From Coraliomargarita sp. (lineage in GTDB: Bacteria > Verrucomicrobiota > Verrucomicrobiia > Opitutales > Coraliomargaritaceae): a DNA stretch of 64,000 nucleotides. The stretch covers positions 992,001 to 1,056,000 of the forward strand of contig OZ244160.1 in the NCBI GenBank assembly GCA_965216325.1, given 5' to 3'. The notes under the pieces were generated by a model. The model did no database searches, was not told the origin of the DNA, and saw nothing but the letters and a program-made list of their open reading frames with translations. Of this stretch, positions 48,294 through 53,485 are shown one piece after another; positions within the stretch are counted from its first letter, which is position 1, and every line of letters begins with the position of its first letter. The position numbers and the translations under genes are program-made.

Positions 48294-48965
48294 TTGTTTA
48301 CCGGCGTGACGATTAGCGAATTCCAGTATCAGGTATATTGGTCATTCATCGCGAGTTTCCTGATCTTAGGCTTCTCTGGGGTGATGTTGTTGCGAAATTC
48401 ATTGCGGTATCGCCCACGCGAGCTCGCGATGTTTGCGCGCGGGGCTGGCTGGCTCTGTTGTTGCCTCTCGTTCCACGGTTTTTTTACGACATACTTGTAT
48501 GTTAGCTTTCTTCGAGGGGAGGGTGCGCAGTTACCACTGCCAGCAGCTGTCTCGATTTGGGTGCTGTCAGCTCCTTGGCTGATCCTGCGCCTGAGGTTAT
48601 TAAGACTTTCTGAGCGCACGGCACACCTCAAGTTGTGGGGGCTAGGTTACGCCGCTAGCTATCTCTTAGGGCTAGTTAGTTGTGCCCCCAGTTTACCTAC
48701 AGCTAGAGCTCTTGCTTGCGGACTGTGCGCCTCTATCCCTCCGCTCACCTCTCTCTTGGTTTTGCCGCGTTACTTTCAGGCTGGAAAGGTGCGCGTTGGC
48801 GTCACGGCAATTTTGTGTGGAATCGCAATGCCTGTTCTACTTCTGGTTGCTTACGCCTTCGGGGGCGGCGGTATCTTGCTGCAGTTGCTCCACAATGTTA
48901 CTGTCGTTTTGATTCCGCTAGTCATTCTTGTGTTTTGTTATACTATCAATCAGACAACTAGGTAG
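48294..48965 (+). CDS. 7-TM membrane protein resembling microbial rhodopsins but lacking the Schiff-base lysine
   Basis: Seven hydrophobic segments; WVLSAPWLI resembles helix C WLLTVPLLL; RALACGLCASIP resembles helix E; helix G has no Lys. The family call is by eye. Confidence 0.55.
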   Translation: MFTGVTISEFQYQVYWSFIASFLILGFSGVMLLRNSLRYRPRELAMFARGAGWLCCCLSFHGFFTTYLYVSFLRGEGAQLPLPAAVSIWVLSAPWLILRLRLLRLSERTAHLKLWGLGYAASYLLGLVSCAPSLPTARALACGLCASIPPLTSLLVLPRYFQAGKVRVGVTAILCGIAMPVLLLVAYAFGGGGILLQLLHNVTVVLIPLVILVFCYTINQTTR

Positions 48966-49207
48966 CTGTGCGCCAAAGACTAGGCGGGAATTTAACCCGA
49001 AATAAGGGCATTCCTCTAGCTTACTAGGGTGCAATTCACTTCACATGTCTGTTCTTGTGCTTTAATAAACTGTAAAAACACATAATTGGCCGCATTGGTT
49101 CTTTACCCAATAGCACAAAAACAGGCATAAAATGGGATTGCCGAGCCCGAAGGCATCAATTTCCTACTTTAGTTTTACATACCTTTAACCTACAGAACAC
49201 TTAGCTC

Positions 49208-49750
49208 ATGGCTGAAAAAGCAACACTACTGTCGAAGTTGCCACCAGTTGCAAAGAGTGGGAGCAATACGCAAGCAACCACTCCGAACACATCTCCTAAG
49301 CTGGCAAAAACTCAACCTGAACCCATCAGTCCCGCCCCGGCCACACAAACAACTGTTGCACCTGCTGCACCCGTTCAACAGGAGGCTGAAAGTTCCGGGG
49401 CTGGTCTTGTGATTGCTGGTTTAGTCGTTGGCTGTGCCGTCGTTGCGGCTGGAGTCTTTGTATTTCTTAAGAAAAAGAAGCCTGCAGTTGTGCCCTCTGG
49501 CTCCAGCGCACAACAGACTTCTGCGGCCACCGTAGCCCCTGTGGCAGAAGCAGCGACTGCTCCAGTAGCCGAGGCGCCCGCTCCAACCCAACCGGCGCAA
49601 CAGCCAGCGCCAGCGGTTGCGCCACAGCCTCCGCAGCCAGCAGTGAGTCGTGCCACTCCACCAGCCAAGCCAGCATCACGTATTGCGGAAGCCGCTCCGA
49701 ATGCTCCCGCAGGGCTCAAAGCGCCTAGCAAACCCAAAAAGCGCTTCTAG
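49208..49750 (+). CDS. Pro/Ala/Thr-rich single-pass membrane protein
   Basis: Low-complexity flanks around TM GLVIAGLVVGCAVVAAGVFVFL followed by KKKK; basic C-terminus KAPSKPKKRF. Confidence 0.8.
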   Translation: MAEKATLLSKLPPVAKSGSNTQATTPNTSPKLAKTQPEPISPAPATQTTVAPAAPVQQEAESSGAGLVIAGLVVGCAVVAAGVFVFLKKKKPAVVPSGSSAQQTSAATVAPVAEAATAPVAEAPAPTQPAQQPAPAVAPQPPQPAVSRATPPAKPASRIAEAAPNAPAGLKAPSKPKKRF

Positions 49751-49770
49751 AGATTATTTTCTAATAACAG

Positions 49771-50682
<912 letters not shown>

Positions 50683-50742
50683 TGACCATAACCCTTTCCA
50701 TATAAACGAACTTTAAAAACAAACCCATAACCGTAATTAACC

Positions 50743-51474
50743 ATGTCTATTCAGCGTAAATATAAGGTCACCACATCCATCACTCAATATATGTGGGCCT
50801 CTTCACGTGAAGATGCACTAAAGTATCAGGAGGAACTCTTTCGCAAGGGGAAGCTTACAGTCCTTGAACATGGCCAAAGTGACGTAAAGTATTGCTTCAC
50901 TGGCGGTAAAGATTTCATCGAAGCCCCTGAAGACATCTCCAAAACACGTAATCCAGTAACGGACCCTCGCCGTGGAGACTGGTTGGAAATTGCCCATGGT
51001 GATGTCAAGGCATGTGCCTTGGTTCGTCGCCTGACACGCCGCAAAATATACTACTATGAGGCGCTGTCGCGCACCGAGCGTTCTGTTGACCGCGAACGCT
51101 GGCAGCATTGGACTTCTCAGCATACAGTACATCCGTCTTATGACGGGATTGTGCCTCCATTCATTGTCGACGAAGCAGTGCAGGCGCACGAAGACCGCGG
51201 CATGTTGAAGGGATTCAACGCAACCCCAGATTCATCACTCATTCTGGAGATTCTGGATAAGTATGGTTATGTCCCAGATGAATATGAGGTTGAGAATGGT
51301 TACTGGGCAGAACTTTACATCGATAAGGCCATTTCTGAGCAGATCCTAGCTAATCAGCAAGCTCCATCTGAGCGCACCGGCACTGATGGTGGTGATAGTG
51401 GCGAATTTGGCGACTTTTCTGTTGGCTTCTCTGAAGAGCTCCCAACCATTGATGACTTTGAGTCTCAATTTTAA
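50743..51474 (+). CDS. Hypothetical protein with acidic/Phe-rich C-terminal tail
   Basis: 243 aa ORF in operon context; ends DFSVGFSEELPTIDDFESQF. Confidence 0.8.
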   Translation: MSIQRKYKVTTSITQYMWASSREDALKYQEELFRKGKLTVLEHGQSDVKYCFTGGKDFIEAPEDISKTRNPVTDPRRGDWLEIAHGDVKACALVRRLTRRKIYYYEALSRTERSVDRERWQHWTSQHTVHPSYDGIVPPFIVDEAVQAHEDRGMLKGFNATPDSSLILEILDKYGYVPDEYEVENGYWAELYIDKAISEQILANQQAPSERTGTDGGDSGEFGDFSVGFSEELPTIDDFESQF

Positions 51475-51515
51475 TTCTTTGATCACTTCCTCATTTTAAT
51501 CTCGGACATACTCCT

Positions 51516-52436
51516 ATGGCTAGAAAGTTAGCATTTATTAATTACAAGGGTGGGGTTGGTAAGACCTCACTCATCGTCAATGTCTCCTCATGTCTTGCTA
51601 AAAAGGGCAAGCGTGTATTGCTGGTCGACTTGGATACGCAATCCAACTCCAGTATTTGGTTGATGCGCATTGAGCGCTGGAATCGCATTAACATGGAGAA
51701 GCGCGGCTCTGTTTATTCGATCTTCGATCCGGGCGAGGACCGAATGAAGGATATTATTGTTAAAGATGTCCTTCGAGACAATCAGGGAAATCCACAGCTA
51801 CCTGGCTTGGACCTACTTCCGACGACTTTCAACCTCATCGACATTGAGAATGAGTATAAGATCGATCCGCAGCGCCCTCACTACCTGATCTTCAATGAGC
51901 AGATTCGCGAAATAGAGCATAACTATGACTATATTCTCTACGATTGCCCGCCAAACGTGTTGAATGCGTCCCAGTGTGGCATCTTTAGCGCGGACGAACT
52001 CTATGTACCGTCTAACCCAGACGCATTGTCATTGATTGGCTTCACGCTGATGATTGAGAAGTTGTTACTCTTCTACCGTCGTTCAGCTGGGTTCCGTACC
52101 CCTGAGATGGGTAACTTTGCACGCGTAGCTGGTGTTATCTTCAATTCAATCAAGGCAAACGTAGACATTGGCGTGCCTAAGATGCGCATGCAACTCCGCC
52201 TCAACCAATTTAAGAAGCAGCGCCTAGTCTCTAATGAAGCCAAGATCTTCAATACTTGTGTCCGTGACGCAACGATTGTTCGCCGTGCGGTTACGCTAGG
52301 CTTGCCGGTTTGCTTGGTTGAAAGCCGTGATGTTGCCGATGGTGTCGGTCAGGACTACGATGATTTGGCAGAAGAGATCTTGGCACACAGTGTAGTGCCT
52401 GCAGGTACTGGCAATGTTGCTGCTAGCGCTTCTTAA
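51516..52436 (+). CDS. ParA/MinD family ATPase (orphan)
   Basis: Deviant Walker A KGGVGKT, LLVDLDTQSN, YDYILYDCPP. Confidence 0.92.
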   Translation: MARKLAFINYKGGVGKTSLIVNVSSCLAKKGKRVLLVDLDTQSNSSIWLMRIERWNRINMEKRGSVYSIFDPGEDRMKDIIVKDVLRDNQGNPQLPGLDLLPTTFNLIDIENEYKIDPQRPHYLIFNEQIREIEHNYDYILYDCPPNVLNASQCGIFSADELYVPSNPDALSLIGFTLMIEKLLLFYRRSAGFRTPEMGNFARVAGVIFNSIKANVDIGVPKMRMQLRLNQFKKQRLVSNEAKIFNTCVRDATIVRRAVTLGLPVCLVESRDVADGVGQDYDDLAEEILAHSVVPAGTGNVAASAS

Positions 52437-52456
52437 TCCTATTTTTTCATCAAGCT

Positions 52457-53485
52457 ATGAGCGAAGACGGTTCCAACAATAACATACTTAGCCCGCAAGA
52501 GAAACTCTCTGCTCGCTGGGATAAGGTTGCTTTCCGTGCACAAGGTTCTCCATTTGAAGACCTCAGTATCGCTTGCTTAGCTAAAAATTCCGGTACGCGT
52601 GCTTGGTCTCGTCCCGGTGGCAAAATCAAGGGGGATACACTTGCGCGTTATGTTTATCTAAGTTTCGAGGAACTCATAGAAATTGAGAAGCTGGATTTAC
52701 GCGCAGCTACACTCCTACTGGAAATCTGCGAGGCCACCTTGTTGTTTGAGGAGGAGTGTGACGATCTGGGCTCTTTTGAAGAGATTGACAATCAAGCACA
52801 TGCCCAACGAATGCGCTTCGTGGAGGAGTTCGGGCTGTATCAAGACTATCCCGTGCGACTGGCAAATCTATCCTCGGATTTGCGCGATCTTTGCGAAGCG
52901 GAAGGAATTAAGAGCTTTATCGATTTAATGGAGTTTCTGGATCGATTGAGTGACCAAGCTTGGATTGGTGGTGATTACAAGTGTCTTCAGAATGTTTTTG
53001 CGCACGGAGACGAGCGTGGCCTGACTCAATATTTTCCGTATCGTAGTGGACATCGTGGATTTCATCTCCCTGAGGCCGTATCATTTTGCTTAAATCGTTT
53101 ATCTCGTCGCGAACTTCAATCCGTTTATGAATACCACGAGCGTCGCAAGCGTCGGGAGCGTCTGTTTGCGAAAACCCGTGAATTGCCCTCAGTGGTAGAG
53201 GATAAGCTCCTTCCGGAAGTTCTGGAGTGTTTATATTACTTTGGCCGTCGACAACCGCGCCTACTGATTCGTCTACATGACTCGGTCTTTTTATGTCGAG
53301 AGTTGATGCATCTTAACGACCCTCAATCAGAAGATGTATTACAGTGGCTATTACATCTGGCCTTAGGCATCTTCCGTCCAAGTGCTGACTCTCAGATCAG
53401 TGAGGACCTGAAAAAGATTACCAAGCCGATGGATGCTGATATCTGCAATGATTTGCGTAAGCTTGTTAATGAAGCAGACGCTTAA
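52457..53485 (+). CDS. Hypothetical helical protein with RNAP alpha-CTD/HhH-like segments
   Basis: SFEELIEIEKLDLRAATLLLEI and LANLSSDLRDLCEAEGIKSFIDL resemble alpha-CTD patterns (tentative). Confidence 0.7.
   Translation: MSEDGSNNNILSPQEKLSARWDKVAFRAQGSPFEDLSIACLAKNSGTRAWSRPGGKIKGDTLARYVYLSFEELIEIEKLDLRAATLLLEICEATLLFEEECDDLGSFEEIDNQAHAQRMRFVEEFGLYQDYPVRLANLSSDLRDLCEAEGIKSFIDLMEFLDRLSDQAWIGGDYKCLQNVFAHGDERGLTQYFPYRSGHRGFHLPEAVSFCLNRLSRRELQSVYEYHERRKRRERLFAKTRELPSVVEDKLLPEVLECLYYFGRRQPRLLIRLHDSVFLCRELMHLNDPQSEDVLQWLLHLALGIFRPSADSQISEDLKKITKPMDADICNDLRKLVNEADA

Follow-up and report, generated by a model that had tools for sequence, protein, structure and literature searches.

ATPases of the ParA/MinD class are the main bacterial means of placing chromosomes, division rings and organelles, and with each new set of ParA partners a further cargo or a further logic of patterning has come to light. 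In PomXYZ of Myxococcus xanthus, such an ATPase is encoded beside lineage-restricted partners, one of them a coiled-coil protein, and it is these partners, not ParB, that define the cargo. In E. coli the tail of MinD is a membrane-targeting sequence, and in Noc DNA binding is joined to a membrane helix. Here we compare with these systems a block of six genes, g1 to g6, found in a 64,000-nucleotide stretch of Coraliomargarita sp. DNA (contig OZ244160.1, positions 992,001 to 1,056,000; below, the window). The source genome (G000) is a single contig (C1) of 3.06 Mb in which the window is C1:992001-1056000, and the nearest named homologues of the window proteins were records from Coraliomargarita, Puniceicoccaceae and Opitutae. 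The block, conserved in marine Verrucomicrobia, is probably a new cell-organising machine, made of a ParA-type ATPase (g5) and several protein families that are without description. An initial annotation, made from the letters of the window, had proposed a six-gene system of a kind not yet described; in those parts of the full-text literature that were available, no such gene combination was found, nor was any paper in which a ParA/MinD ATPase was connected to these taxa or had a pseudokinase for a partner.

Gene order and distribution of the block

Loci of relatives were fetched in a first set of 20 and a later set of 20 and the window proteins were mapped on them by tblastn; the 14 loci that held a close (cluster-type) orthologue of g6 are referred to here as family-level loci. 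The genes g3-g4-g5-g6 were collinear in 13 of these 14, so that the block was found to be syntenic across relatives, and a membrane protein bearing the N- and C-terminal motifs described below lay 5' of it, again in 13 of the 14. The flanks varied, with hflX adjoining the block in just 6/14 family-level loci, which argued that it is the block itself that is conserved and not its surroundings. Across all 40 loci, a ParA gene of the g5 subfamily stood directly upstream of a g6-family gene in 39 (19/20 and 20/20 in the two sets), the sole exception being the source genome's own paralogue of g6 (L030).

The g6 protein was present in 21 of 41 relatives, often with two per genome, and a profile search of 301 genomes of the phylum returned the family in 43, all of them within one order. 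A second family (f19) kept the order membrane protein, kinase, g4, ParA, g6 (L042, L045), and a further family (f18) had ParA and g6 only, followed by a coiled-coil gene which itself belongs to a conserved family. The neighbours of ParA-g6 pairs were varied housekeeping genes, and no division gene was among the conserved neighbours. Of the 151 genomes of the order, 12 gave a match to the g4 family, all of them in the families f1, f12, f16 and f19 and with one match each. Judged by these patterns of gene order and distribution, the module has been inherited vertically and is confined to a single order; the oldest core, on the same grounds, is ParA plus g6, usually followed by the coiled-coil gene, with the kinase, g4 and the membrane protein as later additions. 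At two of the f18 loci, a gene for a single-domain response regulator lay divergently just upstream of the ParA-g6-coiled-coil genes (L036 6733-7305; L046 6534-7004).

Within the window (Table 1), the six open reading frames (ORFs) are co-directional and agree in their coordinates with the initial annotation, running from a glycine-zipper (SlyB-like) gene, which is preceded by mcsB-like and clpC genes, to a convergent hflX. Spacers along the block measured, in order, 32, 242, 20, 60, 41 and 20 nt, and the last five genes are thus as closely packed as had been described (20-60 nt apart). The AT-rich gap of about 240 nt before them was also found, and it had been suggested to hold a promoter; consensus scans for promoters and terminators gave sites no commoner than in shuffled sequence, with no consensus sigma-70 site in the gap. 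The low G+C claimed for the block applied to g3-g6 (47.3%, compared with 53.3% for the genome and within the lowest 1.8% of 6060 same-size windows) and not to g1 (51.8%) or g2 (58.0%), neither of which is AT-rich. A repeat search of the block found no notable repeats and no parS-like array.

Table 1. Coordinates of the block and its candidate promoter region in the window.
Feature	Position	Strand	Basis
g1, 223-aa membrane protein, seven hydrophobic segments	48294..48965	+	ORF
AT-rich intergenic gap, candidate promoter region of g2-g6	48966..49207	.	242 nt, 41.3% G+C
g2, 180-aa single-pass membrane protein	49208..49750	+	alignment A3
g3, soluble Hanks-type kinase domain, no further domain	49771..50682	+	Pkinase match
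g4, 243-aa protein, family without description	50743..51474	+	alignment A2 and model
g5, orphan ParA/MinD-class ATPase, deviant Walker A	51516..52436	+	AAA_31 match
g6, 342-aa all-alpha protein	52457..53485	+	alignment A1 and model

Contigs from four RNA libraries (X1-X4; one sample of one study) that were ~95-100% identical to the window covered g2 to g6, with the greatest contig depth at g2. A single contig (52245-52546) spanned the g5/g6 junction, while others crossed the g2/g3 and g4/g5 junctions, with fewer than 31 letters beyond. Positions 48463-49193, comprising most of g1 and the gap, were left uncovered, which proves nothing.

Features of the component proteins

The engine of the block, g5, matched AAA_31 with 123.6 bits (cut-off 27) and fell below the cut-off of every NCBIfam equivalog tested, these being ParA_partition (63.6 vs 180), MinD (minD_bact, 40.7 vs 212.9), RepA (59.9 vs 348), SopA and BcsQ. 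It carries KGGVGKT, D38/D40 and D143, and among 19 g5 sequences the residues K11, G12, G13, G15, K16, T17, D38, D40 and D143 were invariant. By these motifs g5 is a ParA/MinD-class P-loop ATPase and the sole component with intact catalytic motifs, as had been supposed. It was also the most conserved gene of the block (80-99% identity within the family, 59-66% across the order), with a variable C-terminus that is not amphipathic-basic and is without a MinD-type motif. The nearest solved structures were Soj and MinD, at E 5e-12 and over the N-terminal half only. With g5 as query, no second MinD-like ATPase was found in the source genome, and the only other ParA-like gene was a canonical soj (C1:2452486-2453295, adjoining a tyrosine recombinase gene); the canonical parB (C1:1210459-1211427) is unlinked to it (~1.2 Mb apart). 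PF02195 was matched at two sites of the genome only, C1:1210975 with 93.8 bits and C1:775900 with 21.4 bits, neither of which is beside g5. With canonical soj and parB both encoded elsewhere, g5 is, on the genome sequence, not the chromosomal Soj. No ParB_N domain was found in g6, which had no Pfam match and no PF02195 match at its locus.

Copies of the g5 subfamily numbered one in each of three genomes of this genus, two in G006 and three in G013; the second copy, which elsewhere precedes a paralogue of g6 (g6'), was not found in the three genomes of this genus. MinE (PF03776) was detected in 0 of 41 relatives, with four control genomes positive. In complex predictions of two ParA chains with g6, three runs gave 0.31, 0.00 and 0.63, a median of 0.31 against a mark of 0.32, with controls at 0.00.

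The constant partner g6 was, like g1, g2 and g4, without significant match in Pfam, NCBIfam, PADLOC or PHROGs, and its profile returned only 250 relatives from 1.84 billion representatives of clusters formed at 50% identity. Its model was all-alpha (predicted local distance difference test score, pLDDT, 84.5) and had no Foldseek match against the PDB at E<=0.001, with a best Z of 5.7 in VIA and of 3.6 in PDB VIA; residues 8-105 or 203-342 accounted for most entries of the fold lists, which left the middle domain barely probed, and no alpha C-terminal domain (alpha-CTD) or sigma-4 fold was listed. Candidate homology appeared through more distant members. When 18 of the more distant or longer relatives were scanned against Pfam, six matched Sigma70_r4 (PF04545), five of them (four proteins of alignment A9, and P0370) reaching its cut-off of 24.1 (39.5, 31.7, 29.1, 26.1 and 24.2 bits), and two matched RNA_pol_A_CTD (PF03118; P0365 with 31.3 bits against a cut-off of 23.8, P0370 with 21.0). 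These matches align with g6 at residues ~130-190, an alpha-CTD-like helix-hairpin-helix, and ~205-260, a sigma-70 region-4 helix-turn-helix (HTH). The alignment of the g6 family (A1) was matched by hhalign to that of the four distant relatives (A9) with probability 99.7 (E 5.8e-26, 300 columns), A9 was matched to an RpoA C-terminal-domain alignment from this order with probability 72 (E 3.3e-5), and in a reciprocal genome search the A9 profile recovered both g6 (E 2.2e-15) and its paralogue (7.7e-17). Run over 401 genomes of the phylum, this profile found only the g6 family itself and the sigma-4 segment of primary sigma factors. No longer, fused forms of g6 were found; scans of metagenomes for alpha-CTD/sigma-4 relatives of 330-453 aa gave no match, and those of genome contigs gave matches dominated by ordinary sigma factors. 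Searches of the ESM Atlas with g6 gave two leads to alpha-CTD clusters (0.85 and 0.84), which are leads only. The initial annotation had called g6 alpha-CTD-like, and this appears to be right via intermediates (A1 to A9 to RpoA) and not as a direct PF03118 match; g6 would be a diverged relative of alpha-CTD/sigma-4-like proteins by transitive homology only.

A second feature of the g6 family lay at its C-terminus. Outside the f1 cluster type, each of the 17 g6-family proteins examined has a basic aromatic motif at its end (examples being KKKGFFGRFFGR, KKKGLFGRLFGR and KKRSFWSKLFRRG), while the four cluster-type proteins in the set and the g6 of the window have an acidic helix at the end instead. 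As found in g6' (KKGFFGRLFGR), this motif is a close match to the tail of E. coli MinD, EEKKGFLKRLFGG (NC_000913.3). The source genome has one such paralogue, an orphan g6' of 327 aa that ends TGLMAKLSGIFNK (C1:778775-779758) and has no ParA beside it. It is followed by a gene for a 162-aa coiled-coil protein (the pair being C1:778775-780253), and in other genera this g6'-coiled-coil pair comes after a second ParA copy. About 2 kb upstream of g6' lies a 299-aa ORF (C1:775784-776683) whose ParB_N match is weak and under the cut-off (21.4 bits), alr and another gene standing between the two.

The membrane protein of the block was seen in two forms. At ten loci of other genera, the gene 5' of the kinase encodes one protein of 385-529 aa, composed in order of an N-motif (MSEKATLLxxxPPVxK), a disordered region, seven hydrophobic segments, a disordered tail rich in Pro, Ala and Lys, and a C-motif (APNAPSRLKAPSKPKKRF); the fused form of most genera thus joins the N-motif, a seven-transmembrane (7TM) core and a C-motif ending KPKKRF. 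In the source genome and in another of the same genus (G001), these parts are separate and permuted, with the 7TM core before the N-motif. Here g1 is the 7TM core only, aligning to residues ~64-290 of the fused proteins, and g2 has the conserved N-motif (MAEKATLLSKLPPVAKS), one transmembrane segment (TM) then KKKK, a Pro/Ala-rich tail and the C-motif APNAP..KAPSKPKKRF. The single-TM form occurred alone in one further genome of the genus (G003, L014) and in one of another genus (G005, L023). The C-motif ended in PKKRF at 12 loci and in the variant KKLF at L023. Alignment A3 shows g2 and the fused proteins as integral membrane proteins whose terminal peptides are invariant, and by the positive-inside rule read from A3, the N-tail is predicted to be outside and the C-tail inside in both the 7TM and single-TM forms; the hydrophobic segments of g1 were counted by reading of the sequence.

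Comparison of these forms indicated that the ancestral unit has five genes. A single membrane protein has been split into g1 and g2, and g2 is what remains of the fused 7TM protein with its tail. The proposal of a six-gene system was therefore upheld as regards a conserved module (13/14 loci collinear) and not as regards the number six, and whether g1 is a member of the working system in this genome is uncertain. A frameshift as the origin of the split was excluded by the permuted order and by the gap between g1 and g2, which has stops in all three forward frames and in which tblastn found nothing left of the fused gene; a duplication with later differential loss would fit better. Between G000 and G001, identity was 47% for g1 and 50% for g2, and 91-99% for g3-g6. 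The related strain in the RNA libraries carried an in-frame 15-nt insertion at window position 49345, in the disordered N-tail of g2, together with about ten substitutions in g2, more than in g5 or g6, which fits a fast evolution of g1/g2 within the genus.

An opsin or rhodopsin identity for g1, which had been read as an opsin-like 7TM protein without the retinal Lys, found no support in sequence and profile tests. No Pfam family was matched by g1 at E<=0.1, ten members of the 7TM core gave only chance-level Pfam matches at E<=10 (best E 0.14) with no rhodopsin family among them, and the 7TM profile found no match among all PDB chains at E<=10. No Lys was seen among the invariant or near-invariant columns of alignment A4, in which the last helix conserves L208 and N210 only. 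The ESM Atlas gave a lead to HisKA_7TM (0.88), which is a lead only.

The kinase-like protein g3 scored 101.5 bits against Pkinase (cut-off 31.7). Aligned to StkP, it retains the fold of an active Hanks-type Ser/Thr kinase with the Gly-loop, the VAIK Lys and KPxN, and lacks both the catalytic Asp (HRD to HTA) and the DFG Asp (DFG to ELG). Among 14 orthologues (alignment A6), GKGAIGEV and FALKV were conserved and the catalytic Asp was retained in ten (as HAD, HSD, HGD and once HRD), whereas this genus (HTA, HAA) and the two f19 proteins have lost it; at the DFG position, 12/12 family members have Glu and the two f19 proteins have Asp. The description of g3 as a pseudokinase thus applied to this genome and not to the ten orthologues, and the family is predicted to be atypical throughout, with a clear pseudokinase only in this genus. 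The genus in which the catalytic Asp has decayed is also the genus with the split membrane protein.

The g4 protein has, in alignment A2, a conserved body (residues 1-210), a variable linker and an invariant acidic C-terminal peptide (FSEELPTIDDF), in agreement with its first description as an acidic-tail protein. Its model (pLDDT 81.2) comprised an alpha/beta N-domain, a small beta-barrel (68-135) and a three-helix bundle (136-210). Structure searches of the kind first suggested for each protein were run on g4 and g6, and for g4, as for g6, Foldseek returned nothing at E<=0.001; against VIA the best Z was 6.0, with generic small-barrel and three-helix matches only. Its most conserved stretch was residues 61-82 (APEDISKTRxPxxxPRxxDWLE), a loop without predicted secondary structure in which S66 is invariant and T68 nearly so, and the adjacent kinase-like protein might use this loop as a phospho-acceptor or for docking.

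A putative membrane-linked organiser and its alternatives

From the observed gene order, distribution, motifs and homologies we infer a ParA-driven organiser that would link the membrane to, probably, the nucleoid, with the cluster patterning a membrane-anchored assembly; the interactions, topology and ParA surface that follow are proposals, and we regard the reading as a whole as evenly poised between right and wrong. The engine would be the orphan ATPase g5 and its constant partner g6. In the older form, consisting of ParA, g6' and the coiled-coil protein, the MinD-like basic amphipathic peptide is carried by the partner and not by the ATPase, and g6' would be seated at the cytoplasmic side of the membrane. 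The ATPase, like that of other ParA systems, would cycle between an ATP-bound dimer on a surface, probably that of the nucleoid, and a monomer released by the partner. In this family, a duplicated ParA-g6 pair appears to have become clustered with the membrane protein, the kinase-like protein and g4, of which the last two may be adaptors joining ParA-g6 to the membrane protein at its cytoplasmic KPKKRF tail. The membrane anchor would be supplied by a g6-type partner or, in this cluster, by the integral membrane protein. As only one ParA copy was found in each of the three genomes of this genus, g5 may here serve both g6 and the unlinked g6' paralogue. A membrane link of the module is plausible because of the MinD-like tail in 17/17 non-cluster g6 proteins together with the integral membrane g2 and fused proteins.

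Several results weigh against this organiser. Most lineages with ParA-g6 are without the kinase, g4 and the membrane protein (g4 was found in none of six f18 genomes), and one family-level locus (L022) has ParA-g6 only; with so patchy a distribution, these three genes could be a separate unit that travels with the pair. Many streamlined members of the family (1.3-2.1 Mb, 97-100% complete) are without g6, which makes the module dispensable. PF03118 was matched by none of 20 g6-family members at E<=10 and at none of the g6 loci in 21 genomes at E<=1, PF04545 had no direct match in the same number of members (20), and hhalign of A1 against the RpoA-CTD alignment (A7) gave probability 0.8 (E 0.074) over 21 columns, which fall exactly on the segment LSSDLRDLCEAEGIKSFIDLM, probably what the initial annotation had spotted. 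In the A1/A9 alignment, the sigma-4 HTH of g6 is shortened and diverged, with its first helix deleted and its recognition helix changed, so that DNA binding by g6 is doubtful. The hydrophobic moment failed to separate the C-termini (mean 0.46 for pair-type and 0.64 for cluster-type proteins), and the argument for a membrane tail is therefore one from the motif. The RNA contigs are no proof of a single transcript, and the libraries may contain DNA. Finally, g3-g6 (49771-53485) lie 6 points below the genome in G+C despite vertical inheritance, a difference for which we have no explanation.

Taken furthest, the first of these points gives two independent units side by side, a ParA-g6 positioning pair and a membrane-protein/kinase-like/g4 signalling unit, which would share an operon for regulation only. 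ParA-g6 does stand alone or with the coiled-coil gene in f18 and in paralogous pairs, L022 is such a pair, and in f12 and f16 g4 is divergently oriented with no kinase adjoining. Nevertheless, the four soluble genes are collinear with spacers of 20-60 nt in at least 11 genera and in the second family f19, g4 adjoins this ParA subfamily wherever a g4 locus was fetched and is a single match in all 12 genomes, and the MinD-like tail has been lost only in cluster-type g6, which suggests functional coupling to the added genes. We consider two such units unlikely.

Less likely is a stand-in for Min of the division-site or nucleoid-occlusion type, in which a nucleoid ParA and membrane-bound g6' would tell FtsZ where not to assemble. 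That MinE was found in none of 41 relatives, and no second MinD-like ATPase in the source genome with the g5 query, would fit, as would the joining in g6' of nucleic-acid-binding-type domains to a MinD-like tail and the coiled-coil protein that follows the pair, as in PomXYZ. Against this, the 97-100% complete genomes of the same family that are without the g6 family must still divide, and no division gene is a conserved neighbour of the pairs. A bolder form of the organiser, which would take over this role, is less probable again: the membrane-targeting helix would have moved from the ATPase to an alpha-CTD plus sigma-4 partner, the ParA on the nucleoid and g6' at the membrane would tie the chromosome to the envelope and take the part of Min/Noc in division-site placement in these Opitutales cocci, and the duplicate in Coraliomargaritaceae would be wired, via a kinase-derived scaffold and g4, to a trans-envelope protein that reads the periplasm by its N-peptide.

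The distant relatives of g6 that exceed the Sigma70_r4 and RNA_pol_A_CTD cut-offs might indicate instead a transcription factor or RNA-polymerase-interacting protein, a mimic of alpha-CTD and sigma-4 regulated by ParA as Soj regulates other proteins, and an effector linked to RNA polymerase had also been suggested at first. The HTH of g6, without its first helix and with a diverged recognition helix, and a membrane-targeting tail that is unusual for such proteins make this a poor candidate. Positioning of bacterial microcompartments after the manner of McdAB, in these fucose/rhamnose degraders, is more improbable still. The presence of g6 and of shell genes (PF00936) agreed in 33 of the 41 relatives (17 with both, 16 with neither), but eight broke the link, four having g6 and no shell gene (G010, G012, G021 and G040, 97-99% complete) and four having shell genes and no g6 (G008, G022, G028 and G033); genome size and kinship also confound the correlation, and the shell cluster of the source genome (C1:5703-7796, three PF00936 matches, near the contig start) is ~1 Mb from the block. 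A mobile or defence island, which the low G+C and the PADLOC matches of the kinase (PD-T4-6 and mad6) might recall, has next to no probability, given that those are generic kinase-domain matches, that four of the proteins have none and the ParA only weak partial P-loop matches (best E 8.3e-08), that the block is single-copy and vertically conserved with a ParA 80-99% identical across the family, and that there is no integrase, no notable repeat and a neighbourhood of housekeeping genes.

The ParA-driven organiser, if it is one, would be of wider interest in that the g5 subfamily is conserved across an order of abundant marine and soil polysaccharide degraders, with partners drawn from families without annotation. 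It offers testable handles in the MinD-like tail borne by the partner, in the domains derived from alpha-CTD and sigma-4, and in the invariant terminal peptides of the membrane protein. The kinase domain of g3 is found at different stages of catalytic decay in different genera, and cultivable Coraliomargarita strains exist, which makes direct study of the system possible.

Comparison with described positioning systems

The block shares with ParABS (Soj/Spo0J) an ATPase, whose nearest structures include Soj, paired with a partner of putative nucleic-acid-binding type. It differs in that the genome has its own soj and parB elsewhere, that g6 is without ParB_N, and that there are no parS-like repeats. 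With MinCDE it shares the deviant Walker A ATPase and, in g6', a tail (KKGFFGRLFGR) resembling that of MinD (KKGFLKRLFGG); unlike MinCDE, the motif is on the partner and not on the ATPase, MinE was not found in 41/41 relatives and g5 scores below the minD_bact cut-off. The combination in g6' of nucleic-acid-binding-type domains with a MinD-like tail is reminiscent of Noc.

McdAB, ParC/ParP and PpfA/TlpT resemble the block in having an orphan ParA with an adjacent adaptor gene. In contrast to McdAB-type systems, the block adjoins no cargo locus and its co-occurrence with microcompartments is broken in 8/41 genomes, and g6 is folded and all-alpha where McdB-type proteins are disordered. By the sequence features tested, the block belongs to none of ParABS, MinCDE and McdAB.

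Among the cargo-positioning ParA/MinD systems, PomXYZ appears, from its architecture, the closest in style, in that here too an ATPase of this class lies beside lineage-restricted partners, one of them coiled-coil, and that partners other than ParB would define the cargo. Unlike PomXYZ, the partner here is alpha-CTD/sigma-4-like and carries, in its older form, a tail of the membrane-targeting type, and kinase-like and integral membrane proteins have been added.

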